A DNA stretch of 37,545 bases, taken from assembly GCA_016929855.1 (NCBI GenBank), contig JAFGHY010000043.1, positions 1 to 37,545 on the forward strand. The letters are read 5' to 3'. Made by a program: the position numbers and the translations under genes. Positions 2,121 through 29,208 of the stretch are shown piece by piece. Origin of the DNA: Candidatus Woesearchaeota archaeon (GTDB taxonomy: Archaea; Nanobdellota; Nanobdellia; Woesearchaeales; JAHJEM01). Position 1 is the stretch's first letter, and the number at the start of each line of letters is the position of its first letter. Under the pieces are notes generated by a model. It did no database searches. It saw only the letters and a list, made by a program, of their open reading frames with translations, and was not told where the DNA came from.

Positions 2121-4097
2121 TTATTGTTTTGTCAGGTAGACATCGACGTATCCCCAGTCGCTGATTTCCGGGAATGTCTTCACCAGTTCGTAATTTTCGT
2201 CGAGCGTCTCATATATGAGGTCCTGCTCTTCTTCAGGCAGGAGGCCGAGAACGTCGTAAGTCCTGTCTTTGCTCATAACCACGACCCCTGCTGTTTGCTG
2301 CATGATGTTCTGCACGTAGAGTTCAGTGTTCATTGCTTTCAGTTCCCTCACTTCATCTGTGGGTAGAGTGGTCAGGTAGGTGAAGTATCCTCTTTCAAGG
2401 CCGGGAACCACTGTTCCGCCGGCTTCAACAATCACAGGGATCTCAAACGCGAGCACATAATCTCCCTCATGTATCTGATGTTTAACGAAATCGCTGAGAT
2501 GGTGGAGGTCATCGAGCGTATTTATGGGCTTGCTGTCCCGTATCTCGAGGTTCATCTGCGGGTATTGTGTTATAGGAGCTATAAGGAGCACGCAGAGCAC
2601 AAGTATTGATGCATAGACCTTGGTTCTGAACGATATGGACTGCATCCAGTAGAACAGAAGTGCCGTTGCACCCACTGTCAGTAGAGGTATGTACTGGAAT
2701 ATGTAATTGTACGCTCCGGGTGTAGGCGTAAGTGTCACAAGCAATAGCACGACAAATGATATTAGGATGTATGTTGCCAAAAGCTTTTCTTGTAAGAAGA
2801 ATCTTGCTCGAGACTTGCTTCTCGCATGGGCCTGCATAAGTTTCCAGGTTGCAAACAGGGCTATCGCATAAACGCTCCAGTTGTGGAGCAGGTAGAGGAT
2901 GAGCACTATTATTTTGTCGAGCAGAATCCCAACAAGAGTGTTCATGCTGATTTTCACGAAAAAGTAATCCACAGTTTCCTGAAGGGGCACTGTGCTTGTT
3001 CTTTCTAGGATCCAGCCGAGCAGGCCGTAGTACGTGCGCTTTGGGCTGAGCACAAAGAAAGGGATGTAGGCTGCCGCCACAAACACTATGCCTGTAAGTA
3101 GTGCGTATAATGTTGTCCGTTGTTTTGGCTTGGTCGTTTTATTGCTGATTTTTTTGATAACAGTATTTTTATTAGTATACTTATTTTTGCTGTTTAAGTT
3201 TTTGTTATTCAGATACAGATATGCAAGCAATACTATTGCAAGCGGTGCAACAAATAGTCTCGTACCTATGGCGAGGCACATGAAGAGCATTGAGAGGACT
3301 GCCTGCAGCCAAGGCCTGATTTTCAATTGCAGGAACAGCACGCTTAACAAAAGCAGTATTGTTGTGATGTGGCCTGCTGTGTCGATTATTGTGAACTGTG
3401 ACATTACAGAGATTTGGAATGTCAATGCTGCTGTCACGAGCAGGCCTCCCCATTTGTTGGTGAGCCTTCTTGTGACTTCAAACGCAAGCCCGAGGAGGAC
3501 GAATTTGAGAACTAGTGAGATTGCCCTTTCAACGCCCAGGTTGTATCCAAAGGGCATCATGAGGAGGCTTTGAATGTACCCGAACACGTGCCCCTTGTAG
3601 TATATGAAATCCACGTAAGGCAATTTGCCTTGGCTGATAAGCTTTGCGTTGTTTATGTGGAATCCTTCGTCCTGGCCTCCTATTCGCTGGTGCTGCATAA
3701 GGTACACTCCAGCTATCAGGTTAAGCACTACAATAAGTCCGAGTGCGATACCGAAGAGCACTTTGGAATCGATTTTTTTCTGCCGCTTGCCCATCCAAGC
3801 TATGATACTTCTCTTCTTGAGCATGATAAGATATCCTAACGCCGAGGCTATTCCTGCGATTGCCAATTTTAATGGAAGTATTTTAATCTCAAAAAGTTTT
3901 CTTTGGAACATGCTGTTTGTCAGGTCAGAATTGTCTATGACATACTTGTCCAGGATTGGTTTGTAGAACATGACTGCGACGGCTGCTATTATCATCAAGA
4001 CTGCCAGAATCCAGAATATTATTTTCAGAGCGGTTTCTCCTTTTCCCATGCTTTCGCTGCTGTCAGGGATTTTCATGCAATTGGAGATTTCTGGCAT
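2121..4097 (-). CDS. GT-C fold membrane glycosyltransferase (ArnT/PMT_2, GT39/83-like)
   Basis: 658 aa with more than 10 predicted TM segments. The first extracytoplasmic loop carries GGQDEGFHINNAKLISQGKLPYVDF, the DE..(A)..G.LPY pattern of polyprenyl-phosphate-sugar dependent GT-C enzymes. It has a soluble C-terminal domain of about 130 aa. The start could instead be ATG 4076 (MKIPDSS), because of the TATA at 4098-4108. Confidence 0.6.
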   Translation of the reverse strand: MPEISNCMKIPDSSESMGKGETALKIIFWILAVLMIIAAVAVMFYKPILDKYVIDNSDLTNSMFQRKLFEIKILPLKLAIAGIASALGYLIMLKKRSIIAWMGKRQKKIDSKVLFGIALGLIVVLNLIAGVYLMQHQRIGGQDEGFHINNAKLISQGKLPYVDFIYYKGHVFGYIQSLLMMPFGYNLGVERAISLVLKFVLLGLAFEVTRRLTNKWGGLLVTAALTFQISVMSQFTIIDTAGHITTILLLLSVLFLQLKIRPWLQAVLSMLFMCLAIGTRLFVAPLAIVLLAYLYLNNKNLNSKNKYTNKNTVIKKISNKTTKPKQRTTLYALLTGIVFVAAAYIPFFVLSPKRTYYGLLGWILERTSTVPLQETVDYFFVKISMNTLVGILLDKIIVLILYLLHNWSVYAIALFATWKLMQAHARSKSRARFFLQEKLLATYILISFVVLLLVTLTPTPGAYNYIFQYIPLLTVGATALLFYWMQSISFRTKVYASILVLCVLLIAPITQYPQMNLEIRDSKPINTLDDLHHLSDFVKHQIHEGDYVLAFEIPVIVEAGGTVVPGLERGYFTYLTTLPTDEVRELKAMNTELYVQNIMQQTAGVVVMSKDRTYDVLGLLPEEEQDLIYETLDENYELVKTFPEISDWGYVDVYLTKQ

Positions 4098-4108
4098 ATT
4101 TATAAAAG
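4098..4108. promoter_or_regulatory. TATA-like element ATTTATAAAAG in a 66-bp divergent spacer
   Basis: It is centred about 27 nt from ATG 4076 on the minus strand. A second A/T box (CTTAATAAAC, 4124-4133) could serve ATG 4164 or 4097. The assignment is ambiguous. Confidence 0.35.
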
Positions 4109-4163
4109 CTTTTTTTGCAAAAACTTAATAAACATCTCTAAATACGCTTTTCCTGTGAAATCG

Positions 4164-5120
4164 ATGAACTCTGCCAAGCTATCTGTTATTGTCCCTGCCT
4201 TCAATGAGAAGAGGAACATTGTCCCTCTTTACAATGCTGTGAAGAAAGTTCTTTCTAAGATGGGGGTTGATTACGAGATTATATTCATTGATGATGGCAG
4301 TACTGACAACACTTTTGACGAGGTTAAAAGAATCATTAAGGCAGACACTAGGGTCAAGGGCATCAGTTTCACTCGGAACTTTGGCAAGGCAGCCGCACTC
4401 GACGCGGGTTTCAAGAAGTCAACAGGCAGTCTTATAGTCACAATGGATTCTGACCTGCAGGACAATCCTGAGGAGCTTCCAAAGTTCCTTTCAATGATTA
4501 ACAAAGGATATGATATGGTCGTTGGCTGGAAGTATGTTCGGCGGGACAGTTTCGCTAAGGTCATAGCGAGCAGGATGTTCAACAGCTTGATTAGGGTGAG
4601 CACCGGGCTGAAATTGCACGACAATGACAGTGGTTACAAAATGTTCAGGCGTGAGGTGATAAGCAGCCTGACTTTGTACAGTGGTTTGTACCGTTACATA
4701 CCTGTTTTTGCTCACAGGGCAGGCTACAAGGTATGTGAAGTCAAGGTCAAGCACATGCAGAGGAAGTTCGGGAAGAGCAAGTACGGCGCCAGCCGTCTAT
4801 TCAAGGGATTCTTTGACCTCATCACAATCAACTTCCTGAGCAAGTTCACTACCCGTCCACTTCATTTTTTTGGTAGCCTTGGTGGTTTTTTCATGTTTTT
4901 TGGCTTTCTCGGCGGATTGTACCTGTCATACTTGAGGTTCTTCTATGATGCAGTGATAGGAAATAGGCCTTTGCTCCTACTGAGCATTCTGCTGATTGTG
5001 ATAGGCCTGCAGATTTTTAGTGTAGGGCTGGTTGGGGAGATGATTAGCTTTCTGAACAAGAAGCAGAATCCTGAAAAGCCTTCTGATGACTATAACATCA
5101 GGGAGGTTGCTGGCGGGTAA
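4164..5120 (+). CDS. GT2 polyprenyl(dolichyl)-phosphate glycosyltransferase, GtrB/ArnC/DPM1-type, two C-terminal TMs
   Basis: Starts at MNSAKLSVIVPAFNE, so the ORF-track N-terminal extension from 3903 is discarded. Motifs: IFIDDGSTDNT, FTRNFGKAAALDAGF, VTMDSDLQDNPEE, VVGWKYVRRDS and GYKMFRRE. Two TMs follow at the C-terminus (HFFGSLGGFFMFFGFLGG and LLLLSILLIVIGLQIFSVGLVGE). Confidence 0.85.
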   Translation: MNSAKLSVIVPAFNEKRNIVPLYNAVKKVLSKMGVDYEIIFIDDGSTDNTFDEVKRIIKADTRVKGISFTRNFGKAAALDAGFKKSTGSLIVTMDSDLQDNPEELPKFLSMINKGYDMVVGWKYVRRDSFAKVIASRMFNSLIRVSTGLKLHDNDSGYKMFRREVISSLTLYSGLYRYIPVFAHRAGYKVCEVKVKHMQRKFGKSKYGASRLFKGFFDLITINFLSKFTTRPLHFFGSLGGFFMFFGFLGGLYLSYLRFFYDAVIGNRPLLLLSILLIVIGLQIFSVGLVGEMISFLNKKQNPEKPSDDYNIREVAGG

Positions 5121-5340
5121 AGGCTGTTAATTGCTGATTCACAATCCTATTTTCCGTCGGTTTTTTGGAGGTGTATCATATCAAAACTTTTAAATAAGGG
5201 GTTGCAACCCAGATTTCATATATAATTTTATATAATTTTGTTTATTATTTGTTTTATAATGGCTAAAAAGAGTCCGTAAGTACGGAGTTCATAAGTCAAG
5301 GGTTTGGTTTCCAGAGTGATTCCAGGAAAATTTATGGGTG

Positions 5341-8300
5341 ATGGTGGTTTGTATGGGGAAAAAGAAGAAATCTAGAAGAAAGTCAAATCGAATATTGCCA
5401 GCAAATAAGTCTTCTGATGATGGCTCGTCAGACATTGATGATTTCGCCCTGACGGTTGATAGGAAGCCAGAAGTGGAGGAGCGGGCATTATTGAAAAAAC
5501 GCAAAACAAGCTCAGGCTCTGCAAGTCAGGGTTCAGAGACCAGCCAGAGTTCAGAGACCAGTGTGTCTTCATCAGGAGTTTCATCAAGTTCATCGAGAGC
5601 TTCATCAAGCACATCATCAGCCACTGACATAATCACTTCCAAGGTGATGCCTATTGTCAGGCACAAGTATTTTCTGGTTGCAGTACTGCTTCTTATAAGT
5701 ATCTTCATCAGCATTTTCATGAGGTCATACTCTGGTCACATTCCTGCATCAGAGGACTGGGCCAGGTCGACTGTCTACAATTTTCACAGGGAGCAGATAT
5801 TTGCTGACAAGCAGGCAGAATATCCGAGCCTGGGAGCTGACAAGATAAACCAGCTTGTTGATCAGGAATGGCAGGCATTCTATGAAGCAAACAAGGACGC
5901 GATTGAGCAGAATGTGAAGCTTGTGCAGGATAATGTGAAGGAGAATTTTCAGATTGACCAGAACGGAGACGCCCAGACATATCTTCTGGCAATCGACCCT
6001 TACTTCTACTACAGGAGAATGTTAAACATTATTGAGACAGGGCATTCTTATGATGAAGCGAGGGAGGATGGATTGTATGATAATCACATGCAGGCACCTG
6101 TTGGGGTGCAGATGCGCTCCGACTTCCATTCGCAGTTCAGCGCTTTCATGTATAAGTTCCTTCATTTTTTTGACAGGAACCTTACGCCTTTGCAGGTTTT
6201 CTTCATGATTCCTATTATCATTGGCACGCTGGCGGTCATTCCCGCATTCTTTATCGTACGCAAGAAAGCAGGTAATTTCGGTGGTTTTGTTGCGAGCATA
6301 ATTGTGGGGATGCATCCTGCTTTTATCGGCAGGACTGCTGGCGGTTTCGCAGATACCGACGCGTACAATGTCCTATTGCCCCTTCTAATAGCATGGCTTT
6401 TCCTTGAGGCTTTCGAGGCCAAGAAGCCTTTATACAAAGCAATATTTGCCGGAGTTTCAGGAATCCTTGTCGGAGTATTTTCGTACACGTGGACTGGATG
6501 GTGGTATATTTTCTTCTTCATAATTGCAGTTCTTGCAACGTATATTATTTATCAGCTGATCATATACTTTTATGGCAGGGTGAAGCTGAGCAAGGTTTCG
6601 AAGGAGAACCTTAAGAATGTTGCACGGTCGTCTTATGTACTTGGAATATTTGCTGCACTGTCAGTGATTAGTGTGCTTATATTCAGCAATGCAGGTGTTC
6701 TCATCTCTTCTCTGACATCCCCTTTCAAGTTCACAGCGATAAAGGATGCTGCTATATCAGACCTGTGGCCGAATGTTTTCACGACGGTAGCGGAGCTGAA
6801 TCCTGCTTCGTTGTCTTCTGTTATCGGGAACATCGGGGGAAGCATGCTGTTCGTGTTCGCCCTGCTTGCCCTTGTATTCACGCTGCTGCCGAAAAACAGC
6901 CTAACAAATCTGACTGGCAAGGAAGGCCAGAAAATGTATTATTCCTGGGCGTACTTTGTTGGCTCAATAATATATTATCTGCTTATTCATAGGGCCGGTG
7001 CTCTTGTCTGGTTTAACAATCATTTGGTGCTTTATCTCATTGCGTTGCTGCTTCCGATAGGTGTTGGGATGTTGGTGCTTCTGCTGAGAGAGGATGTGAG
7101 GAAGGAGGTGGACATCAAGTATGCGATGTTTCTCATCCTGTGGCTTGCCGGCACGATATATGCTTCCACAAAAGGCATACGTTTCGTGCTTCTCCTGGTG
7201 CCTGCTTATGGCATTGCTGTGGGCCTGTTTGTGGGTCTTGTGAAAGAGAAGGTTTCCATTCTTTTCAAGAATGAGTTCAAGATACCTGTTATTGTGACTG
7301 CATCGGTGATAGTCATCGGTGTGCTTTTGTTCCTGGGAATTTTTCCTAAACCTTCTTTCGGCTACACGAGTTCGTGTCCTTTCATGCCAGAAAAGAATTT
7401 TGCTACAGGACAGCCTAGCTTCATGTGCTCGTCGCACGTGCAGGCAAAGACTGAGGTGCCCAGCATGACTGATGGCTGGTGGGATGCCTTGACAAAGATT
7501 AAGGAGAACAGCAGGGAAGACGCAATCATCAACAGCTGGTGGGATTTTGGCCACTGGTTCAAGGCAATTGCTGACAGGCCTGTGACGTTTGACGGGGCCA
7601 GCCAGAATACGCCTATGGCGCATTGGATCGGGCGTGCTTTGCTCACGGATAATGAGGCCGAGGCTATGGGCATATTGCGTATGCTGGACTGCGGAAGCTA
7701 TACTGGCGAGGAAAAGCTGAAGGAGTACACTGGTGGTGACAGCCTGACTTCCATCAAGCGCATGAAGGAGATTATATTGCTTGACAAGGATGATGCACGA
7801 GCTGCACTTAAGGATTATGGTTACTCTGATTCTGAAGTTTCTGATGTTCTGGAACTTACCCACTGTAGTCCGCCTGAGGACTTTTTCATCACTTCAGGTG
7901 ACATGGTAGGCAAGGCAGGAGTGTGGGGTCACTTTGGAGGCTGGGATTTTGATAAGGCTTTTATCTACACTACTGTGAAGAACAACAAGATGGACAAAGC
8001 AGTGAAGATTATTCAGGACAAGCTGGGAATGACTGAGCAGGAGGCCAGAAACGCTTACGTCGAGCTGACTTCCCTGACGAATGAACGCGACAAGAACTCA
8101 TGGATTAGTTCATGGCCGAATTATGTTAATATCGTTGCTTGCAGCAAAGGCTCTGACACTGACACGGGCGAAGAAATCTTTAATTGCGCGTTTAACATGA
8201 ACATTGGATCCCAGAACAACAATGTTGTTATCTTCGAAAGCGCAACGTTCTATCCAAATAATGTTTCAAAGACTTACCTGACTTTCATGGTCGTGAATCC

Positions 8301-9255
8301 TGCTACAGGGGCGAGATCGGAGTCCACACGCGGGGTTCCTGAAAAGGCAGGAATCACTGCAGAGGACGGCATTGAAGTCCATACATTTGTCGAGGAGGAG
8401 GATTCTGGTCCAGTTAGCAAGCTGAATTTCGCTTTCCTACTCGACACTGTTGACAGCAAGGCCCTGATGATAGACCCTGTGTTCATGGAATCGATGTTCA
8501 CAAAGCTCTTTTACTTGAACGGTAGGTACACCACTTATTTTGAGAAGTTCGATGACAGGACAACGACCAACAACTTGAGGATAATTACCTGGAAAGTGTC
8601 CTGGGATGGAGGCATTGACAATTCTCCTGAAATAGTTGAAGATGATCTTGTTGAGCAATCAGAAGATGGAGCCGGCCAAGAAGTTGATGAAACGAGCACA
8701 TCTGAATCTGCTGATGAGACAGAAGAAGAGCTCGGAGAGCAGACTGAAGATACAGAAGAAGGACAAAATGAGAATGAAGGAGGTGTAGAAGTGTCAGAAG
8801 GAGAAAGTGCTCTTGCTCCTGCGAAGAGAAAGGCAGTGATCACAACATCAAAGGGAGTTATTGAGTTTGAACTGTATGAGAATGAAGCGCCCATTACTAC
8901 TGCAAATTTCATCAAGTTGGCAGAGCAGGGGTTTTATGATGGATTGAGTTTCCACAGGGTAGAGCCTGGTTTTGTCATCCAGGGAGGAGACCCTAAGGGT
9001 GACGGTACTGGAGGGAGTCCGGACAAGATTCCGCTCGAAATCAGTCCATTGTTGAGGCATTGGGACGGAGCGGTGTCGATGGCGAGGGCATCAGACCCTA
9101 ACAGTGCGAGCTCGCAGTTTTTCATCACGCTTGGGGCCCAGCATTTCCTTGACGACAACTATGCTGTTTTCGGCAGGGTTATTGCAGGCAAGGACGTGCC
9201 TTCCAAGATCCAGGTTGGCGACGTGATGGAGAAAGTCGAGATAGTGGATATCTGA
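5341..9255 (+). CDS. aglB: AglB/STT3 oligosaccharyltransferase fused to a C-terminal cyclophilin-type peptidyl-prolyl isomerase
   Basis: One uninterrupted frame. It has a Ser-rich N-tail, then a multi-TM core with [25 protein letters not shown] (TIxE-type) and WWDFGHW (WWDxG, nt 7537-7551). An E/D/S/T-rich linker (about 8620-8832) precedes the cyclophilin domain (8833-9252). The start may be ATG 5341 or 5353. Confidence 0.85.
8833..9252 (+). other. Cyclophilin (PPIase) domain of the AglB fusion protein
   Basis: [61 protein letters not shown]...[21 protein letters not shown]...[12 protein letters not shown]. These are canonical cyclophilin signatures (FHRV.PGF.IQGGDP, SMA....NS..SQFFI). Confidence 0.9.
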
Positions 9256-9411: not shown

Positions 9412-10347
9412 ATGCGTCCGAAACTATTGTCAATTGTCGTGCCCGTCTATGATGAGGTGCAGAGCCTTCCGTATCTTGAGAGCAGGATAAGCAAGATTAT
9501 GCTGGAAATGAAGCAGGATTACGAGCTCATTCTAATAGACGATGGGAGCACGGATGGCACTTACAAGAAGATGCTTCAGTTGAAGAAGCTGAACAGGCAC
9601 ATTTGCATAATCAAGTTCAGGAAGAATTTCGGCCAGACTGCCGCCATGGACGCAGGCTTTAAGCTCGCCAAAGGCGAGGTCATAGTGAGCTTGGATGCCG
9701 ACCTGCAGAACGACCCTAGGGACATTCCCCGGCTACTGGATGCCTTGGACAAGGGTTATGATGTTGTCAGCGGATGGCGTGCTGACAGGAAGGACCCTTT
9801 TGGCAAGAAGGTCTTTTCGATTTTTGCCAACAAGTATCGCAAGTGGCTGACTGGTGAGAGGATTCATGATTCCGGTTGCACTCTGAAAGCGTACAGGAAG
9901 GAATGCTTTGATGACTTGGACCTTACTGGTGAGATGCATAGGTTCATTCCTGCGCTGCTGATGTGGAAGGGTTTCAGGATTGGAGAGATACGGGTAAAGC
10001 ATCATGCAAGGAAACTCGGAAGGACGAAGTACAATGTCACCAGGCTTTTCAAGGGTTTCTTTGATATCCTTGTGGTTGTGTTCTGGCAGAAGTGGTCTAC
10101 CAAGCCAATATATTTTTTCGGACTCATAGGTGTGATGATTGAAATGCTTGGAATTCTTCTGGGAGCATACCTGTTTTATCTGAGATTTGTTCTGAAATCG
10201 GGCATCGGCAATCGTCCGCTGTTCACGCTTGATATCCTGCTCATCATACTTGGAGTGCAGTTCATCATCTTCGGTCTGCTTGCTGACATAATGTTCAAGA
10301 ATTACTATAAAGGCACACCTTCCTACAACATTCAGAAGATACTCTGA
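9412..10347 (+). CDS. GT2 polyprenyl(dolichyl)-phosphate glycosyltransferase, GtrB/ArnC/DPM1-type (paralogue of 4164-5120)
   Basis: LSIVVPVYDE, LILIDDGSTDGT, FRKNFGQTAAMDAGF, VSLDADLQNDPRD, VVSGWRADRKDP and GCTLKAYRKE, plus two C-terminal TMs. It is colinear with the 4164-5120 product (RLFKGFFD..., GNRPL...). Confidence 0.85.
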   Translation: MRPKLLSIVVPVYDEVQSLPYLESRISKIMLEMKQDYELILIDDGSTDGTYKKMLQLKKLNRHICIIKFRKNFGQTAAMDAGFKLAKGEVIVSLDADLQNDPRDIPRLLDALDKGYDVVSGWRADRKDPFGKKVFSIFANKYRKWLTGERIHDSGCTLKAYRKECFDDLDLTGEMHRFIPALLMWKGFRIGEIRVKHHARKLGRTKYNVTRLFKGFFDILVVVFWQKWSTKPIYFFGLIGVMIEMLGILLGAYLFYLRFVLKSGIGNRPLFTLDILLIILGVQFIIFGLLADIMFKNYYKGTPSYNIQKIL

Positions 10348-15667: not shown

Positions 15668-17584
15668 ATGGTATTAAAGCCTTTTCACAAAGGGTTATTG
15701 GGGGATAAAATGGTTTTTGATGGACTCACAGGAAAAGTCAAGAAAGCTTGGAATGATATGAGAGAAAATGTTCTTATTGTTAATGCCTTGCGTGCAGTTC
15801 CTTATGTAATGATGCAGTTGGCCGGTGGCCAGATTTCTTCAGCCGTGGCTGACCCTGATAGTGGGTCACAAAAAGCTTACGATACGATGAAGAACATGAA
15901 TGCTCAAACGCCTATAGAACATGTTGCAGGGGTTCCCATCACCTGCCTTGGTGATATGGAGAAGTTCCTCGCAGAGCTGAAGGCAGCTAATGAGAAGGCT
16001 GAACAGGAAGCACAAGAATCAGGTGAAGCAGAAGGTACTTATGAACTGCCAACGCAAAAAACTGCTGAAACAGCACCCAGCCATCAGGCAGCTCCTTCTG
16101 ATATCAAAACACCTTCTGATTTGAAGGATCATGATCCTATTTCTGTACATACTAGACTCCCGGTATTTGAAGAGACTTTTGTGAATGGCAGCGGCCTTGA
16201 AGATGCTGTCGTGAACAGCATTCTTGTTTATGGTGCGGGTCCGAGACCGCAGAGATTGTTTGCAGGTCCTGACGGAAGGTTCCCTACACTCACAGTCACT
16301 GAAGATCAGGCGCCAAATGTGAGGGTGTACATTGAGGGCAGTGGTCCTAATGGTTCTGTTATGGATTTCATAACCTATGACTCGGAAGGAAGGAAGGTTG
16401 TCGTTGACACTGGCGGTTTTGCAGGAACGCTTGATTGTGGATCGAATGATTACTTTGCAGTCGTTGAGTACGCTGGAATGGGTGCAAGAGTGCTTGCTAG
16501 CGTGGAAGGAAATATTGATGTAGAATGCGATGGAAAGCCAGTTAAACACGAGAGGGCTCAGCCGCCTATGTCCGGAAGGACTGTGTATCAGACCAACAAT
16601 TGGAATATTGTGATTAACGGTTCCGGTGACCATGAGAAGAGACAAGAGAGGCCTGTCTGTCATGAGCCTAAGCCCGAAGGTAAGTCAGGAGGTTCATGGT
16701 TTGTCGGTGGGGGTATGTTATTCGAGGACAACGAGAAGAGCATGCACCACACAGGTATTGATTATTCTATTGATTCAGACCAGGATGTTAAGGGTTGGAC
16801 ATTCGGAGCAGGAGGTTCGGGAAGGTTCACTATGCTTAACGGTAATGGTGCTTACGGCGCTGTCGAGCTGGACGTTAGTTCAGTAAGAGGTGACGGTAGC
16901 AGGACAGAGACTCTTGATGATGTTAAGCTTGACTTTCCAGAGACTTACAAGAATACTCAATCCAGCCTTTCAGTTGTTGGCGGATTCAGTCCTGGCGACG
17001 GTCCGGTTTGGATTGGCGGCAGCATTGACTTTGTCAATGCCTGCCATGAGTATGATCGCGGGACGTTGAACGAGCATGGCGAGTACGACCATGACGTCAC
17101 AAAGAGTGAGGAAGGCGGCGTACGCGGAGGGATAGCAGTAGGTGCGGGTATTCCTGGAGGCGCCAGCAATCACATTGCTTTTGTCTATAATCCTTGGGAG
17201 AACATAAGGGTTGACCAAGGGCATGGCATTGCAGGATATGATGTCGACCATAATGGCTGGCACGTCTTCGGTCAAGTCGGCGGCAGCATTTCTGACGATG
17301 CGAAGCTGTTTGTCAACGGTGAATTTGAAAAGGTTGCTACTGAATATGACAGAGGACATGAAGGCAGGTCCGACCAGTGGGAGTCAGACGGCTTCAGGTA
17401 CACTGATGAAGGCTACAAAGCAGGAGTTGGTGCAGGCCTGTTCTTCAGCAACGGCATTCACCTTTATGCTAATGGAACCTACTCAGATGTTGACCGTGAC
17501 ATATTTGACGGAAATCCTGTCTGGGAAGGAACTAATGAAGGTTGGAGTGCATCAATTGGAATTAATTATTACGGAGATTTTTAG
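15668..17584 (+). CDS. Hypothetical 638-aa protein with a Gly/aromatic-rich beta-strand C-terminal half ending in Phe
   Basis: Long ORF with no competing frame. An alternative start at ATG 15710 is preceded by GGGGGA. There is no clean signal peptide, only the weakly hydrophobic LIVNALRAVPYVMMQLAGGQISSAVA. An acidic/Pro-rich linker is followed, from about residue 339, by roughly 13 alternating-pattern strands, ending ...GWSASIGINYYGDF. Confidence 0.6.
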   Translation: MVLKPFHKGLLGDKMVFDGLTGKVKKAWNDMRENVLIVNALRAVPYVMMQLAGGQISSAVADPDSGSQKAYDTMKNMNAQTPIEHVAGVPITCLGDMEKFLAELKAANEKAEQEAQESGEAEGTYELPTQKTAETAPSHQAAPSDIKTPSDLKDHDPISVHTRLPVFEETFVNGSGLEDAVVNSILVYGAGPRPQRLFAGPDGRFPTLTVTEDQAPNVRVYIEGSGPNGSVMDFITYDSEGRKVVVDTGGFAGTLDCGSNDYFAVVEYAGMGARVLASVEGNIDVECDGKPVKHERAQPPMSGRTVYQTNNWNIVINGSGDHEKRQERPVCHEPKPEGKSGGSWFVGGGMLFEDNEKSMHHTGIDYSIDSDQDVKGWTFGAGGSGRFTMLNGNGAYGAVELDVSSVRGDGSRTETLDDVKLDFPETYKNTQSSLSVVGGFSPGDGPVWIGGSIDFVNACHEYDRGTLNEHGEYDHDVTKSEEGGVRGGIAVGAGIPGGASNHIAFVYNPWENIRVDQGHGIAGYDVDHNGWHVFGQVGGSISDDAKLFVNGEFEKVATEYDRGHEGRSDQWESDGFRYTDEGYKAGVGAGLFFSNGIHLYANGTYSDVDRDIFDGNPVWEGTNEGWSASIGINYYGDF

Positions 17585-17588
17585 GAGG
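17584..17588 (+). promoter_or_regulatory. Shine-Dalgarno GGAGG for the 759-aa gene
   Basis: GGAGG overlaps the upstream TAG (17582-17584) and sits 6 nt before ATG 17595, which implies translational coupling. Confidence 0.6.
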
Positions 17589-17594
17589 TTGAGA

Positions 17595-19874
17595 ATGTTA
17601 AACAAAATTTTCACAATAATGTTGGGCGTGCTTGCGTTTGTTCTTGTTTTTGCAGTGACAGCATCGTCTGTTAGTGCAGAGCTTTGCCCTGACGGGCTTG
17701 GAGGATATTGGGAAGACAATGATGGGGACTGCATCCCTAAGTATTTTGATAACTGCTGGTACATGCAAAATGCCAACCAGGCGGACAGTGACGGCGACTG
17801 TGATGAGCATGATCTCCCTTACACTAGCGACCCGCACTGCGGTGACGTATGCGACCCGGTTGATGATGACGATGATGGCCCTTACAATCATGCTCCTGAA
17901 ATCGAGCAGTTCTACGGCCAGACTGTTGCCTGTGACGAGGAATTCGATTCGGTCAGGCTTTATGTTGATGACGATCACACTGATGAAGAGGACTTGATAG
18001 TCACGGCTTACAGCCAGTACAACAGGTTGGACTCGGATATCCGTGAGACTAACGGGCACTTCTATCTTGTTGTTGACAATCCTGAATCAGGAAATGATGA
18101 GCCTATTGTCGATTATGTCCGTGTGAAGGTTAAGGATAAGGGTGGCAAATACGCTCTTAGCCCGTGGGTTAAGTTCAAGGTCCTTGCCTGTGAAGAGGAT
18201 GATGACAATATCGAAGATTTTGTGATGGACAACATTCCAGGACAAACTGTACAGTGCTATTCAAGCTTCAGCACTAAGGATTTTGATGATTACATCGACA
18301 ATTATGGAGGATATTCGAGCAGTGAGCTGGAGTTCAACATCAGGTCAATTCAGCCTCAGGTTGATTCTGAAGCCGGATTGGATTACAAGTTTTATGATAG
18401 CACGAACAGCTTCAAGGTAATCAATCCAAAGGACGGCAGGGAGAGGACTGACCGTTATGAGATTAGCGTTTCAGCAGGGGCTTCACGCCTTGCTCAGGTC
18501 ACTACAGGTTATTTCAAGGTGGTGAACTGCGATGAGGAAGACGATGAAGATGAACCGCCAGAGGATGAAGATGAGCTTTGCAGTTGCACTGACTATTACA
18601 ATGCTTATGCCCGTTATGACGGTTGGAATTTCATGCATTGGCTGCACGAGCACGACGAGTGTCGCGGCTATTACAGGGTAGAATGCCCTTTGCCGGATGA
18701 TGATGATTTCAACGACTGGGATTGTGAAGATTGCGATGATGATTGGGATTGCGACGATTGTGATTGGGATGACTGGGACTGTGACGACTGTGATAATGAT
18801 GAGATTCACATCCATTATTACTATGATTACTATGATGACCCATACAATTACTATTATGACAACTTTTACAGCCAGCCAATCTACATAATGGACGAGCCAG
18901 GCTGTATGCTGCCGGATCCTTACTCTGCAAGGATGGTCGCTGACAAGGACTGTGACAATGTTCCGGATAATGTTGACAATTGTCCTGAGGTGCACAATCC
19001 CGGACAGTGGGATGCGAACCGGAATGGTATAGGTGACAGTTGTGAAGTTGTGATCGAGAGCTTCAGCGTGCTTCCCGGCACTGACTTGAAGGAAGGTCAG
19101 GCTTTCACTGTGAGTGTTTCATTCGCCAACCTGGCGCCTGAGAAGCTGTATAACGTTCAGGTTGAGGCTGCTGTGGATGCTTTCGGCCTTTTTGGCAGTG
19201 AGCTGGTTGACAGGATGGAGATTGGCGAGACCCGGACAGTCACGTTCAGGTTTAACATTCCTCAATGCATTGACCCAAGGGATGCCATAGTCAAAGTGAA
19301 GGTCAGGTATTTTGAACGCGAGGTAATTGGAAGGAATGCCAACCTGCACATAAGTGAAGGGCAGTGTGACCTTGAGGTCGTGCATAATAGTGTTGTTGAC
19401 GTGTTTGACATCCAGGACGTTGTTGTCGGAGAGAGCACTTCATTCCCTATGCTGGTCGAGAATACTGCTAATGTTGACAAGTCTTATGTTGTCACGGTGC
19501 AGGGTGTTGACAGCTGGGGTTCGTACTATGTTGACGGCGGGAATGTTGTTATTGTTCCTGCAGGCCAGAAGAAGACAGTCAATTTGGTTGTTACTGCAAG
19601 GCAGGATATTGATTCTGGCGAGCGAGTGTTTATGGCTACGTTGACGCAGGGTTACGAGATCCAGGAGATCCTATTGACAGCTAATGTCAAGCAGAAGGAG
19701 TCTGAATCATACGGCTTTACTGGCGGTTTTGTGCTTGCTCTTAGGATTATACTTGTCATATTGCTGTTGGCTTTGGTAGTGTATGCTGTGTTTTTGGCAG
19801 TGAAGGATAAGGAGATGAAGAGTCCTGTACCTAGGGGCTATGATCCGTTGCCTGACTTCGAGACCTACAAGTAA
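17595..19874 (+). CDS. Secreted, C-terminally membrane-anchored cell-surface protein (TSP type-3 repeats, Ig/cadherin-like modules, CARDB-like domains)
   Basis: The start is set at MLNKIFTIMLGVLAFVLVFAVTASSVSA, a signal peptide, with an SD upstream. TSP3-like motifs are DNDGDCIPKYFDNC...QADSDGDCDEHD and DKDCDNVPDNVDNCPEVHNPGQWDANRNGIGDSCE. Two acidic Ig-like modules and two CARDB-like beta-sandwich segments follow. The C-terminal TM is FVLALRIILVILLLALVVYAVFLAV, with a short tail. Confidence 0.8.
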   Translation: MLNKIFTIMLGVLAFVLVFAVTASSVSAELCPDGLGGYWEDNDGDCIPKYFDNCWYMQNANQADSDGDCDEHDLPYTSDPHCGDVCDPVDDDDDGPYNHAPEIEQFYGQTVACDEEFDSVRLYVDDDHTDEEDLIVTAYSQYNRLDSDIRETNGHFYLVVDNPESGNDEPIVDYVRVKVKDKGGKYALSPWVKFKVLACEEDDDNIEDFVMDNIPGQTVQCYSSFSTKDFDDYIDNYGGYSSSELEFNIRSIQPQVDSEAGLDYKFYDSTNSFKVINPKDGRERTDRYEISVSAGASRLAQVTTGYFKVVNCDEEDDEDEPPEDEDELCSCTDYYNAYARYDGWNFMHWLHEHDECRGYYRVECPLPDDDDFNDWDCEDCDDDWDCDDCDWDDWDCDDCDNDEIHIHYYYDYYDDPYNYYYDNFYSQPIYIMDEPGCMLPDPYSARMVADKDCDNVPDNVDNCPEVHNPGQWDANRNGIGDSCEVVIESFSVLPGTDLKEGQAFTVSVSFANLAPEKLYNVQVEAAVDAFGLFGSELVDRMEIGETRTVTFRFNIPQCIDPRDAIVKVKVRYFEREVIGRNANLHISEGQCDLEVVHNSVVDVFDIQDVVVGESTSFPMLVENTANVDKSYVVTVQGVDSWGSYYVDGGNVVIVPAGQKKTVNLVVTARQDIDSGERVFMATLTQGYEIQEILLTANVKQKESESYGFTGGFVLALRIILVILLLALVVYAVFLAVKDKEMKSPVPRGYDPLPDFETYK
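18696..18869 (+). repeat. In-frame low-complexity block: (D/W/C)-rich DWDCxDCD repeats followed by a Tyr/Asp-rich stretch
   Basis: It encodes DDDDFNDWDCEDCDDDWDCDDCDWDDWDCDDCDNDE and then IHIHYYYDYYDDPYNYYYDNFY. At the DNA level there are reiterated gat/gac-tgg-gat/gac-tgt/tgc units. Confidence 0.9.
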
Positions 19875-20849: not shown

Positions 20850-20919
20850 TGTTAATAAAAAATTATGCTAATAAATGATGTGGGTAAGAAAAATAGAAGT
20901 TAGAAAAATACATGTGGTT

Positions 20920-23328
20920 ATGAAAATGAAGTTCAATAAAATCATCCTGGTTGCGCTGCTCGCGATTCTTCTTTCAGGTTTTGCAAGCGCAGAGTTCATC
21001 GTCAACAAATACACCAATGAGTTTGCAGTCACGAGTCCTGTGCAGGACGTCAAGGCTTGCGCCTGCGGTGTAGGCCAGGACACGATTGACGTCACGAACC
21101 ATGGCAATATCGGCGCGATATTCCAGGTTGACATCGAGACTCCTTATCCAGACTGGATGGAGGTTGCAGAGAGCAATTTCTGGATCGAGCCCGGCCAGTC
21201 CAAAGCAGTTCATATCAGCACAAGGATTCCTTGCGATTACGAGGGAGCTTTCACCTACAGGGTGAAGGTCCACACGAGCCAGGGCAGGGACAAGTTTGTT
21301 GACAGGCAGGTGCTTGCCAAGGACTGCCAGAACATCAGGGCTGACCTTTCTGTTTACGAGTCGAGCGTGTATCCTTGCACGCAGACAGAGTTTGATATCA
21401 ATGTCGAGAATACCGGCAAGCATAAAGAGACATACTACGTGGGGATGGATGAATCGTTCCTTCACGACAGTCACATCACTTTTTCAGAGGATAACATCGC
21501 GCTTCAGCCTGGTGAGACTGGAGTCGTGCATGCAGTCTTCTCTCCGCCGTGCAGCTTGTACGGTGTTATTGACATGCCTTTCATGGCATCCACTGAGCTT
21601 ACTGGCCAGTCTGTCCTCATGGACTTTGACCTGACCATTATCAGGGATTATGATTTCACAATGAGTCTGCCTGACTTGGGCATGACGTTAAACAACGGAG
21701 GAATGGAGGTGGCTGATGACGGCACTCTGAAGGTGTGCTCGAAGGTCGTGACTGAAGTCCCTGTTGATGTCAAGAACATCGCGCGTATCGCGAACACATA
21801 CACTTTTGACCTCGTCGGTCCAAGCTATGCCGGCACGGACCTGACTGAGCTGAGTGTCAATCCTGGCCAGACCAGGCAGGGCAGCCTGATATTCAATCCT
21901 TCTGGTTTGGTTGAGGGAAGCAGTTCACTCTCTCTCAAAGCAGAAAGTGCTTTGGGTGATATGCACAAGGAGCTGAAGGTCGACTATACTGTCGAGAACT
22001 GCTATGATCATGAGCTTGATATCGAGACCAACTATGCTGATGTCTGTTGCGGCCAGCATGAGTATGCTGTCAAGGTCGTAAACACGGGCAGTGTGACTGA
22101 CACTTTTCATGTTGATGCGCAGAGTGACCTTGAGGTAGGCGTGAGCCCTAAGTTTGTGGTGCTCTCTCCTGGAGAGGAGGCTCTTGTGACATTGTCTGTC
22201 GATGCGCTCTGCACTGATGAGCTTTATGAGATTAAGGTTTTCACGACGAGCGAGAAATCCGGCTTGATCGGGAAGGCAAGTCTTGTGCTGAACAGCTTGT
22301 CGCCACAGTCATGCTATGATGTACTGCTAGATCCTGTTGAGGTTAGGGTGCTGAAGGAGAACATGCTTAAGGGCGTTGAAGTTCCTGTCAAGTTCGTGCA
22401 CAACGGCCTGAAGGGTGGTGACTATAGGGTTTACATGGACAGCCAGGTCTGGGATTCTTCAACTCTAGATGAGGTGTTTAACATAGGTCCTGGAATGACA
22501 AAGTCCCTTGACCTTATGCCTGAGAATGCCGATGCTGTTGCTGAACTTAATTATGGCAGATACTTGTCGAGGATCGTGTTCATGATCGAGGACCCTGATT
22601 ATGGTCCAATTGTGTACGAGAAGAGCTTGTTCACTGACATAGTTGACCGTTCGTTGGCGAGCAAGGTCAGGCTGATGTTCAGCAAGCATCCCAACTGCAT
22701 CTTCGGCCTCATAATTTTCGTGCTTGCGACAATTGCCGCAATCCTTGTTGTTTTTAGGGACAAGTTCGACAATTTTTCGTTCGCAAAGGGGATGGTTGTT
22801 TTCAAGCGCAGGAAATGGGAGGGCATTGAGCTTTTCAGCAGATGGATGCTCATGCTGGGCGTATTTGCGCTTGCCTTTATACTATTGAGCTGGAACGGTT
22901 TTCCAAGCTTTCAACCCAAGAACGTCGAGTTGGCTGATGGTCCTCTGCTTATCCAGTGGTTCGAGGACAACCAGCATGTCATGGACTTGAATGATTATTT
23001 TGAGGACCCTGACCTTGACAGTCTGTCATACACTTCAACTTTTGTTGAGAACATTAACGTGTCAATTTCAGGAAGCAAGGTGACTTTCACGCCAGACTAC
23101 AACTGGCATGGTACCCGTCAGGTAATCTTTACTGCTGATGATGGCAAAGGCGGTGTGACTGACAGTTCTGTATTGACCTTGGAGGTTCTTGATGTTAAGG
23201 AAAAGACCTTGGGCAACATCTTCGGATTGTACTGCTGCTACATTTTCCTCGGCCTGCTGCTGCTCATATGGATTGTCGTGATGATTGACATCAGTTTGAG
23301 CCAGAAGGTTGTAATAGTGAGGAAGTGA
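20920..23328 (+). CDS. Large multi-domain surface protein (repeated CARDB/NEW3-like beta-sandwich domains, TM hairpin, extra Ig/cadherin-like domain, terminal TM)
   Basis: The start is set at MKMKFNKIILVALLAILLSGFASA, a signal peptide. At least five repeats fit the pattern C...f.v.V.NtG...d.f.v......W..v....f.l.PGe...v.v.v. TM segments occur at about 22696-22755, 22843-22893 and 23218-23290. Between the last two is DLDSLSYTS...VTFTPDYNWHGTRQVIFTADDGKGGVTDSSVLTLEVLDV. Confidence 0.8.
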   Translation: MKMKFNKIILVALLAILLSGFASAEFIVNKYTNEFAVTSPVQDVKACACGVGQDTIDVTNHGNIGAIFQVDIETPYPDWMEVAESNFWIEPGQSKAVHISTRIPCDYEGAFTYRVKVHTSQGRDKFVDRQVLAKDCQNIRADLSVYESSVYPCTQTEFDINVENTGKHKETYYVGMDESFLHDSHITFSEDNIALQPGETGVVHAVFSPPCSLYGVIDMPFMASTELTGQSVLMDFDLTIIRDYDFTMSLPDLGMTLNNGGMEVADDGTLKVCSKVVTEVPVDVKNIARIANTYTFDLVGPSYAGTDLTELSVNPGQTRQGSLIFNPSGLVEGSSSLSLKAESALGDMHKELKVDYTVENCYDHELDIETNYADVCCGQHEYAVKVVNTGSVTDTFHVDAQSDLEVGVSPKFVVLSPGEEALVTLSVDALCTDELYEIKVFTTSEKSGLIGKASLVLNSLSPQSCYDVLLDPVEVRVLKENMLKGVEVPVKFVHNGLKGGDYRVYMDSQVWDSSTLDEVFNIGPGMTKSLDLMPENADAVAELNYGRYLSRIVFMIEDPDYGPIVYEKSLFTDIVDRSLASKVRLMFSKHPNCIFGLIIFVLATIAAILVVFRDKFDNFSFAKGMVVFKRRKWEGIELFSRWMLMLGVFALAFILLSWNGFPSFQPKNVELADGPLLIQWFEDNQHVMDLNDYFEDPDLDSLSYTSTFVENINVSISGSKVTFTPDYNWHGTRQVIFTADDGKGGVTDSSVLTLEVLDVKEKTLGNIFGLYCCYIFLGLLLLIWIVVMIDISLSQKVVIVRK

Positions 23329-27816: not shown

Positions 27817-29208
27817 TTACCTTACAAGGTTTCCGGTGTGAACTGTCATTATCTGCTTTACGATTCTTTTTGTTTTTACAAGGTCGTGCTCGAATCTTTC
27901 TGAGAATTCCAAAGCTATGATACGGGCTCCTTTTTTGGAAAGCCTGCCGTTATTGTCGAGTAGTTTGTTTCTCCTGGCAAAAGTCAGCATCTCGTCCGAT
28001 ACGCTTCTTCTCTTGTCTATCATCTCCTCAATCTTCTTGAGTATAGGGTAATAGAATTCTGGTGTCAATGATTTGGCGAACCTGTACCATTTCTTGGTGT
28101 ATTCGTACAATGCTTGATCCTTGAATCCTTGGTATGCGCTGGCCTTCTGGAGTTCTTCGCGGACATAAGTGTGGGGAGGTATGAACATTATGCCTTTCTT
28201 AATCTTGAAAGGCTCGTTTATTCCCTTGTCTGCAGGTATGACTTCAATGAATTCCCTCTGTATTTTCTTCAGGCAGAACTTGATGAGTGCGCTGAGCCCG
28301 AGGTTGATGCTCATGTAGTTCATGCTCATCCCTCTCATCTCAAGCGTCCCAAGCTTGTTTATCTTGACTGGATTCCAGCTTATGTCCAGCTTGCAAGGAT
28401 AAAGGGTTTTTGGGTCTGCATTAGGATCTGCCTGCCTTATGAGCTTCTCCCACCTGGCTTGGCGCCGTTTTATGCTCCTTATCAGGTCTGTCTCTGTCTG
28501 CTTGTATGGAGGGAGTCCTCCGAACTGCTGGTGGTCATTGTACATCCCTGGATAGTTGAGTTTCTTTCCTCCCCTGTACACTAGGAGTCTTGAGTCTTTT
28601 GCAAGAACCTGTCCTTCAAAGAATGGGCTTGACTGCGTGAGGAGGGTCAGGATAGGGTCTATTGCAATCTCGAAGTTGTAGCAGTTCATCAGGCTGCGCT
28701 TGAGCTTGCTGTCCATCAGGAGCCTGAGGTCTTTCTTCTCATGGTCAAATACTCCTTTTGGCAGGGTGTAGTGGTGATGGAATCCGACTGCTTTTGTGGC
28801 TAGTGCGAACTTGTCCTTTCCGAATATCTTTTCTTGTATCTTGTACTTGCTGTCAGGGCTGGGCGTGAACTTTGTCTTGGTCCGGCCAGGGTATGTGCCG
28901 AATGGATACACGCGCAGCTTGCAGCCCCTTCCAGTATTGATGACTGCCTGGATGGATTCTATGATTTCGAGTGCTGGGTTGTACGTGTTGATGTTGGGCA
29001 GACAGCCGAGCTCTAGCATATTCTTCCCGCATTCCTTTTCGACATTCACAAAAGGGTATCTTTCCTTTACTTTGTTGCACAGGTCGAATCCTTTGTATGA
29101 CAGGCTCCCGTTGTCCTTGATTATGTGCATCTCGGTTTCTAGGCCTGTCTGAGAAATCTTTAAGGGTCTTTTTCTGCTTTGCTTTTTTGTTATGTTTATG
29201 ACTTGCAT
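27817..29208 (-). CDS. GCS2-family carboxylate-amine ligase (glutamate-cysteine ligase family 2 / YbdK-like)
   Basis: Colinear family motifs: GLETEMHII (GxExEf), NMLELGC, YPFGTYPG (GthP), VGFHHHYTLP (GlHvHv), LLTQSSPFFEG (SPf..G), SRLLVYRG and NKLGTLEMRGMS (tlEvR..D/S). Its own TATA (AATTTATG) is centred about 25 nt upstream of ATG 29208. Confidence 0.7.
   Translation of the reverse strand: MQVINITKKQSRKRPLKISQTGLETEMHIIKDNGSLSYKGFDLCNKVKERYPFVNVEKECGKNMLELGCLPNINTYNPALEIIESIQAVINTGRGCKLRVYPFGTYPGRTKTKFTPSPDSKYKIQEKIFGKDKFALATKAVGFHHHYTLPKGVFDHEKKDLRLLMDSKLKRSLMNCYNFEIAIDPILTLLTQSSPFFEGQVLAKDSRLLVYRGGKKLNYPGMYNDHQQFGGLPPYKQTETDLIRSIKRRQARWEKLIRQADPNADPKTLYPCKLDISWNPVKINKLGTLEMRGMSMNYMSINLGLSALIKFCLKKIQREFIEVIPADKGINEPFKIKKGIMFIPPHTYVREELQKASAYQGFKDQALYEYTKKWYRFAKSLTPEFYYPILKKIEEMIDKRRSVSDEMLTFARRNKLLDNNGRLSKKGARIIALEFSERFEHDLVKTKRIVKQIMTVHTGNLVR

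Follow-up and report, generated by a model that had tools for sequence, protein, structure and literature searches.

Why does the oligosaccharyltransferase (OST) of an archaeon end in a prolyl isomerase? This question is raised by a locus of Candidatus Woesearchaeota archaeon (Nanobdellota; assembly GCA_016929855.1), where the OST AglB and a cyclophilin-type peptidyl-prolyl isomerase (PPIase) are joined in a single open reading frame (ORF). We analyzed positions 1–37,545 of the forward strand of contig JAFGHY010000043.1; this whole stretch of 37,545 nucleotides is called the window, nucleotide positions refer to it, and residues are numbered along the 1305-residue ORF with a GTG start at 5338. 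An earlier annotation of the same DNA, referred to here as the original prediction, had noticed the fusion and proposed that the cyclophilin is displayed outside the membrane and couples N-glycosylation with proline isomerization. By its sequence the ORF belongs to both the STT3/AglB family and the cyclophilin family, and it is predicted to encode the organism's AglB OST with a tethered C-terminal cyclophilin whose catalytic residues are intact. Its parts are as follows.

5338–9255, + strand: whole AglB–cyclophilin ORF, 1305 residues plus stop codon, GTG start, taken from the ORF list
5338–5664, + strand: cytoplasmic N-terminal extension (residues 1–109), with a K/R-rich start and a Ser-rich low-complexity stretch at residues 57–97
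5665–7344, + strand: polytopic GT-C membrane domain (residues 110–669), with the first transmembrane (TM) segment, TM1, at residues 110–128 and the last at residues 651–669
7345–8604, + strand: extracytoplasmic globular domain (residues 670–1089), an alpha/beta fold with a predicted local distance difference test score (pLDDT) above 90 and no TM segment
8605–8829, + strand: acidic low-complexity tether (residues 1090–1164, about 75 residues), recognized by its composition, predicted to be disordered, without a sequon
8830–9252, + strand: cyclophilin-type PPIase (residues 1165–1305), PF00160, catalytic Arg R1207 encoded by codon 8956–8958

The translation of the ORF contains no stop codon between the AglB part and the cyclophilin part, so that the fusion is one uninterrupted frame (5338–9255), as had been proposed. 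In-frame ATG codons at 5341 and 5353 are alternative starts; the public gene call (P0001) begins at 5353, which gives 1300 residues, and carries precomputed Pfam matches to PF00160 and PF02516. In our Pfam scan of the ORF, STT3 (PF02516) matched residues 213–660 with 136 bits (cutoff 24.5, E 1e-39), and Pro_isomerase (PF00160) matched residues 1167–1298 with 151 bits (cutoff 21.7, E 3e-44), the latter spanning profile positions 3–144 of 159. A weak STT3-PglB_core match (residues 730–782) surrounds the WWDFG motif. Since two independent Pfam domains with E-values of the order of 1e-39 and 1e-44 lie in a single frame, chance is excluded. The presence of a complete STT3/AglB core and a complete cyclophilin is thus borne out by the profile search that the original prediction had itself suggested as a check. 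The motifs lie where it had placed them, including WWDFG at 7537–7551, and its boundaries for the linker (8620–8832) and the cyclophilin (8833–9252) are correct within a few codons. The linker that connects the two parts in frame is indeed acidic: residues 1086–1165 include 20 E and 8 D.

The AglB body carries the EL1, EL2, EL5 and WWDxG motifs by which this enzyme family is recognized, and a variant sequence where the DK/MI motif would be expected. Invariance of these motifs was judged in an alignment of 39 members of the clade, and EL denotes the external loops of the membrane domain.

5995–6012, + strand: EL1 motif DPYFYY with the catalytic-type Asp220, which aligns to D49 of human STT3A and is invariant (D115 of the alignment)
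6352–6360, + strand: DxD-type metal-binding motif D339-T-D341 in EL2, invariant (D234/T235/D236 of the alignment), aligning to DNE of STT3A
6781–6795, + strand: TIXE/SVSE-type EL5 motif T482-T-V-A-E486, invariant (T377–E381 of the alignment)
7537–7551, + strand: WWDFG (residues 734–738), the WWDxG sequon-binding motif, aligning to WWDYG of STT3A, invariant
7900–7926, + strand: DMVGKAGVW (residues 855–863), clade variant in the region expected for DK/MI, with D855, M856, K859, V862 and W863 invariant

The longer strings ADTDAY and TTVAEL begin at residues 338 and 482 of the ORF. DMVGKAGVW fits neither the DK nor the MI consensus exactly and can be read as D-x3-K or as M-x2-K-x3-W; we take it to occupy the DK/MI position by comparison with the yeast DINKFLWM and Pyrococcus furiosus DWAKFNAI motifs. 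The alignment of the AglB half with human STT3A (6s7o, E 1.4e-9) extends over the full length. In the AlphaFold2 (AF2) model of residues 106–1305, pLDDT is about 90 throughout the AglB body, and a Foldseek search with this body retrieved PglB (6gxc, E 1e-15), STT3A/B, yeast Stt3 and A. fulgidus AglB (7e9s/3waj), with E-values from 1e-15 to 1e-9. The secondary-structure string of the model is compatible with 13 TM helices, and about nine clear TM segments appear in a Kyte-Doolittle profile, which is insufficient for an exact count. The score against TIGR04154 (archaeo_STT3, the archaeosortase-A-associated AglB) was 47 bits, below the cutoff of 450, so that the window protein falls outside that subfamily and into a separate DPANN clade. 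With its OST catalytic motifs intact, this AglB is predicted to transfer lipid-linked glycans to Asn.

Two regions of the protein look peculiar to the clade. The AF2 model contains a confidently predicted helical insertion of about 70 residues in EL1, upstream of D220 (residues ~131–202, window ~5728–5943), which is absent from the span of the Pfam STT3 model and looks like a clade-specific elaboration. At the N-terminus, 19 K and R residues precede TM1, consistent with the positive-inside rule, and relatives have K/E-rich extensions at the same place. Extensions in the clade contain one to five copies of an acidic-then-basic motif of the type (D/E)(D/E)-h-x-h-DFSKIK-x-FFKKKK (P0080, P0111, P0002); P0080 has five copies of this DFSKIK-type motif, and the window protein has the Ser-rich stretch at residues 57–97 instead.

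The C-terminal domain matches the solved cyclophilin structure 2mvz_A with an E-value of 2e-34 over 143 aligned residues. In human CypA numbering (R1207 being R55), R55, F60, Q63, A101, Q111, F113 and L122 are conserved in the five aligned fused cyclophilins, and the substitutions of the window domain relative to CypA (N102R, W121F, H126Y) are the usual prokaryotic ones. The NCBIfam equivalogs of E. coli PpiA and PpiB, NF008151 and NF008057, scored 102 bits (cutoff 308) and 64 bits (cutoff 297). Both scores are below the cutoffs, so that this cyclophilin is not orthologous to either of the two E. coli proteins. Its conserved residues indicate a catalytically competent enzyme, and PPIase activity is predicted. 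In AF2 runs on residues 106–1305 and 690–1305 the domain was poorly modelled (pLDDT 30–70), since only two and then five aligned sequences covered it.

On which side of the membrane does this domain reside? All OSTs of solved structure have the WWDxG domain, like the catalytic loops EL1, EL2 and EL5, on the extracytoplasmic or lumenal side. No hydrophobic segment follows the last TM segment of the window protein; the maximum 19-residue Kyte-Doolittle mean after residue 700 is 1.09. As no TM segment occurs after residue 670 and the side of WWDxG is known, the cyclophilin must lie outside the membrane with the WWDFG domain. This argument combines homology with the absence of later TM segments, and it upholds the extracytoplasmic location that had been proposed. 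The nearest free-standing cyclophilins agree with it. They are proteins of about 200 residues, anchored as lipoproteins or by a TM segment, and 60–68% identical to the cyclophilin of the window. Of the 50 single-domain proteins most similar to the window domain, 39 begin with a hydrophobic stretch that represents a signal peptide, a lipobox or a TM anchor; a lipobox is present in 17 of these 39, and in some (e.g. P0229) a TM anchor is followed by an acidic linker. They are predicted to be extracytoplasmic foldases held at the membrane.

The globular domain of AglB closes with the clade-conserved sequence IITWKVSW (residues 1082–1089), a VWKVDW-type end, after which the tether begins. Residues 1098–1159 have a pLDDT of about 32 in the AF2 model and no secondary structure. 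The GC content at third codon positions (GC3) of the linker DNA (8593–8832) is 0.25, versus 0.55–0.57 for AglB and cyclophilin on either side, as a result of a strong preference for GAA and GAT in an acidic low-complexity stretch. About 70 of the 204 DPANN relatives of AglB likewise end, after the conserved VWKVDW, in an acidic tail of 30–110 residues without a PPIase. The linker is present as described, but it is not specific to the fusion: since such tails are common in relatives lacking a PPIase, the tether predates the fusion, and the PPIase was appended to an existing tail. The E/T/N/S-containing acidic tails of the relatives (P0002–P0204) are often dense in N-x-S/T sequons, e.g. ...NETNTSELNISQNT, and may represent a self-glycosylated brush on the enzyme.

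The fusion could in principle be an artefact: aglB might have become linked to an independent cyclophilin gene through loss of a stop codon, through a frameshift or in a chimeric assembly, and the exact protein of the window is indeed recorded from one contig only. However, an independent metagenome-assembled genome (MAG) of Nanoarchaeota (GCA_043812855.1, contig JBDRLR010000162.1) encodes a protein of this architecture, with a cyclophilin of the same, short subtype. This protein, P0426 (1208 residues), has a Ser/Asp-rich linker and the gene order of the window; its cyclophilin is 65% and its AglB body 39% identical to those of the window protein, and it is likely an orthologue of the window fusion. 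Three other fusions, P0108, P0111 and P0355, each occur in two independent assemblies, and one parvulin fusion lies within a closed 1.84-Mb chromosome (OY970338.1). No separate cyclophilin gene was found near aglB in 80 related loci. Codon usage is uniform (r = 0.67 between cyclophilin and body), with a cyclophilin GC3 of 0.57, close to that of the remaining gene and of adjacent genes, and the junction is free of tandem repeats. Given the independent recurrences, the closed chromosome, the uniform codon usage and the repeat-free junction, we rejected an assembly artefact, the probability of which we regard as negligible.

Is the window fusion unique? The AglBs closest to it (35–42% identity) come from Woesearchaeota, Nanoarchaeota and other DPANN MAGs, and a search seeded with P0108 revealed that DPANN AglBs carry PPIase domains of three families: cyclophilin (PF00160), parvulin (PF00639/PF13616/PF13145) and FKBP (PF00254). 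In total, 29 of the 285 collected DPANN AglB homologues have a PPIase at the C-terminus (6 cyclophilins, 16 parvulins and 7 FKBPs), a set that is biased to cyclophilin fusions, as two of the queries contained one, and unbiased for parvulin and FKBP. Among the best 80 loci of a species-dereplicated GTDB collection, five were fused, four to parvulin and one to cyclophilin. Examples are the cyclophilin fusion P0355 (GCA_016938695.1, Woesearchaeota), the parvulin fusions P0111 and P0409, and the FKBP fusion P0383. When eight examples were re-scanned with Pfam, each PPIase domain was at the extreme C-terminus and above the gathering thresholds. The window protein conforms to this arrangement, its PPIase following a VWKVDW-type AglB end and an acidic linker without an intervening TM segment, and its AglB body is 35–42% identical to those of the other fused AglBs. 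The uniqueness implied by the original prediction is thus refuted: about 6–10% of DPANN AglBs are fused, and they are already in public databases.

Other searches defined the reach of these counts. A query with the C-terminal half returned non-fused AglBs and the parvulin fusion P0196, did not recover the window protein, and yielded no fusion count. With tail, linker and cyclophilin as the query, tandem multi-cyclophilin proteins dominated through their summed scores, and one further fusion (P0342) was found; the same search served to identify the nearest free-standing cyclophilins. Fusions clustered under non-fused 50% representatives are invisible to a representative search. Many contigs encoding DPANN-type AglBs are titled Methanosarcinales, Methanobacteriota, Alphaproteobacteria, Bacteroidota or KSB1 (among them L010, L012, L015, L016, L081, P0124 and P0177); these are probably mislabelled or mis-binned records.

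How often was a PPIase acquired? The fusions were scattered in a neighbor-joining tree calculated from 867 alignment columns of 266 AglB bodies, which required at least 17 state changes (17–20 across 60 bootstraps), although neighbor-joining is rough at these distances and the number can serve as a guide only. A more reliable minimum of four acquisitions is given by three non-homologous PPIase families and two separate cyclophilin subtypes. The subtype of the window protein and P0426 is 65–68% identical to free-standing exported cyclophilins and 44–52% to the other fused subtype, which is longer and PpiA/B-like (P0108, P0355, P0356 and P0342). An origin from a conserved neighbouring PPIase gene was rejected, as a separate PPIase gene within 4 kb of a non-fused aglB was seen in only one of the 80 loci (L084). 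In that locus, positions 7133–8392 (− strand) contain an ORF of 420 residues whose C-terminal part is a parvulin domain; its distance from the non-fused aglB is about 3 kb.

What, then, could be gained by placing a PPIase there? Three non-homologous folds, which have only PPIase activity and binding of unfolded chains in common, occupy the same position in AglB, and this indicates that the shared activity was selected. The pattern argues that PPIase or chaperone activity near the OST is what selection acts on, and the convergent attachment of three PPIase superfamilies to one OST clade is strong comparative evidence that prolyl isomerization or chaperoning works jointly with N-glycosylation of exported chains. 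We propose the following scheme. Exported proteins would emerge unfolded from the Sec channel at the external surface of the cell's only membrane, where AglB would scan them and glycosylate N-x-S/T sequons while the chain is flexible. The linker would keep the PPIase within tens of angstroms, so that it could bind proline segments of the same chains and catalyze their cis/trans isomerization. The outcome may be quicker folding just after glycosylation, or segments kept flexible for sequon use; in addition, the tether would prevent the foldase from diffusing off a cell without an outer compartment. Altogether, a functional coupling of the PPIase with N-glycosylation of exported chains appears to us moderately probable. 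The coupling postulated earlier is strengthened insofar as a cyclophilin, a parvulin or an FKBP can stand at the same C-terminal position; the coupling itself is what we infer from this arrangement.

Several observations weigh against functional coupling. The argument for it comes from architecture alone. About 90% of the related AglBs have no PPIase, so that AglB can function without one. The fusion counts cover AglB homologues only. AF2 gave neither a confident model of the cyclophilin nor a docking of it to the AglB active site, and a long flexible tether fits AglB as an anchor equally well. Finally, FKBP11 beside OST is the sole structurally resolved eukaryotic case, and its authors argue for an adaptor and not for an isomerase (PMC12804085).

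Some of these points would be expected if the PPIase were a general extracytoplasmic foldase for which AglB is merely a convenient, abundant membrane holder, with no cooperation with glycosylation. The disorder and length of the tether and the absence of the PPIase from most relatives fit such an anchor, as do the closest free-standing cyclophilins, which a lipoprotein or TM anchor keeps at the membrane, in some cases together with a similar acidic linker, and surface membrane-anchored cyclophilins are known from single-membrane bacteria (L. lactis PpiA, PMC3307742). Yet three unrelated PPIase families fixed at the same terminus of AglB, with many gains, losses and switches, would be difficult to account for if AglB were not a preferred site. 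Moreover, an AglB anchor necessarily puts the PPIase where unfolded exported chains are processed, so that this explanation and coupling overlap. We consider an anchor and nothing else somewhat unlikely.

The FKBP11 case leads to another explanation, namely that the PPIase fold is a non-catalytic adaptor that docks a partner, a specific substrate (e.g. a surface-layer protein) or a host-cell ligand. FKBP11 adjoins OST-A, its ligand site is buried and it is read as an adaptor (PMC12804085); its structure (PDB 9n9j) is among the structural matches of the AglB body. Against an adaptor, the catalytic Arg and the hydrophobic pocket are retained in five fused cyclophilins, and between the window protein and P0426 the cyclophilin is better conserved than the AglB body (65% versus 39%). 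The interchangeability of three folds likewise points to the sole property that they share. A purely adaptor role is accordingly improbable in our view.

A more far-reaching form of the coupling that we favour would be that the PPIase gates N-glycosylation: through binding or isomerization of prolines it would keep proline-proximal sequons accessible, as MagT1/Ost3 do with cysteine-proximal ones, and then release the chain to fold. The fusion would then be a minimal single-polypeptide 'glycosylate-and-fold' machine, built repeatedly in DPANN archaea. By analogy with eukaryotic OSTs such gating is conceivable, but we think it unlikely. If it were true, prolyl isomerization would be a general, so far unrecognized determinant of N-glycosylation site occupancy, and by a Rosetta-stone inference free membrane-anchored PPIases might cooperate with AglB, STT3 or PglB in organisms without the fusion.

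The fused gene lies in a glycosylation cluster in the order family-2 glycosyltransferase (GT2), AglB–cyclophilin, GT2, LPG_synthase_TM, PMT_2-type GT-C and GT2.

3903–5120, + strand: upstream GT2, PF00535 (E 1e-35), domain from residue 94 of the mechanical ORF
9412–10347, + strand: downstream GT2, same arrangement in L001, L005, L086 and L087
10460–11470, − strand: LPG_synthase_TM-family membrane protein, a family that also adjoins the parvulin-fused AglB in L003 and L004
11516–13393, − strand: PMT_2-type GT-C glycosyltransferase, with PMT/PMT_2 at the same relative position in L005
13447–14205, + strand: third GT2 of the cluster

This setting is common to the window and six other fusions, and fused genes occupy the same type of locus as non-fused ones. 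In all fusion loci examined, a GT2 gene is located directly 3' of the fused aglB. As the fused genes lie in glycosylation clusters and are followed by GT2, each looks like the main AglB of its locus. The mechanical start of the upstream GT2 is a TTG codon 87 codons before the probable true start, ATG 4164 (MNSAKLSVIVPAF...); with the latter, the overlap with the minus-strand ORF ending at 4097 disappears.

The window also encodes an archaeal Nre protein and several large ORFs of 463–887 residues without a Pfam match, at 15668–17584 (+), 17211–19874 (+), 2121–4097 (−) and 27817–29208 (−). The first two overlap by about 370 nucleotides in different frames, and one of their mechanical starts is probably wrong. 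An 817-residue protein encoded at 20875–23328 (+) has several weak Ig-like, cadherin-like and fn3-like matches and is a candidate large surface protein and a possible substrate of AglB and the PPIase. A 415-residue ORF at 33201–34448 (−) contains a glutaredoxin or thioredoxin-like domain at residues 56–122, with the rest of the ORF unassigned.

How does this fusion compare with known systems? Archaeal and bacterial OSTs are regarded as stand-alone enzymes, and to our knowledge accessory factors through which an OST links glycosylation with folding have been found solely in the multi-subunit complexes of eukaryotes. The window protein resembles the GT-C enzymes AglB, STT3 and PglB (GT66; 3waj, 7e9s, 6gxc, 6s7o) in its STT3 domain, the acidic residues of EL1 and EL2, the TIXE-type EL5 motif and WWDxG, and in having an extracytoplasmic globular domain after the multi-TM core. 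It is only 12–18% identical to the solved OSTs, from which its clade differs by the helical EL1 insertion, the DMxxKxxVW motif, the N-terminal extension, the acidic tail and the C-terminal PPIase. With the public DPANN AglB–PPIase fusions it shares the domain order, the extreme C-terminal PPIase after an acidic linker and the glycosylation cluster; it differs in that P0108, P0355, P0356 and P0342 use the longer cyclophilin subtype and others a parvulin or an FKBP. In public records the fusions are labelled 'peptidylprolyl isomerase' or 'STT3 domain-containing protein' (NCBI), P0426 being 'MAG: peptidylprolyl isomerase [Nanoarchaeota archaeon]'. A full-text literature search, thin on subscription journals, found no published description of an AglB, STT3 or OST with a fused PPIase, and the words isomerase, chaperone, fused and folding are all absent from a 2024 review of archaeal N-glycosylation. 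Public databases thus contain the sequences, but the architecture seems not to have been described; the claim that no OST with this architecture has been characterized therefore stands. A 2021 survey of 196 archaeal genomes, two of them from Nanoarchaeota, reported no cyclophilin or parvulin outside Euryarchaeota and Thaumarchaeota (PMC8530231), and our finding widens the known PPIase repertoire of DPANN archaea. As a single-polypeptide system, the fusion offers a simple setting in which to test the link between glycosylation and folding, and it may guide the engineering of single-subunit OSTs for glycoprotein production.

A functional analogy is offered by Ost3p/Ost6p and MagT1/TUSC3, folding modulators on the lumenal side of OST that delay folding and influence sequon choice (PMC4137057). 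As in the window protein, a folding-modulating enzyme is attached to the OST on its external side. These are separate thioredoxin-fold subunits acting as oxidoreductases on cysteines, without homology to the domain found here, and the Pfam scan of the window ORF gave no match to a thioredoxin-like domain. Human FKBP11 (9n9j) is a PPIase-fold protein located beside STT3 in the lumen during nascent-chain processing at the SEC61/OST-A translocon (PMC12804085). It is a separate TM protein recruited via the ribosome, with its ligand site buried by CCDC134, whereas in the window protein the PPIase is covalently linked to the OST and has a conserved active site. Single-membrane bacteria, too, have extracytoplasmic PPIases anchored in the membrane, among them the parvulin lipoprotein PrsA of B. 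subtilis. Another is L. lactis PpiA, which resembles the fused cyclophilin in being an exported PPIase held at the outer face of the membrane for the folding of secreted proteins (PMC3307742). What anchors these bacterial proteins is a lipid or one TM helix and not, as in the AglB fusion, an enzyme of protein export or modification.

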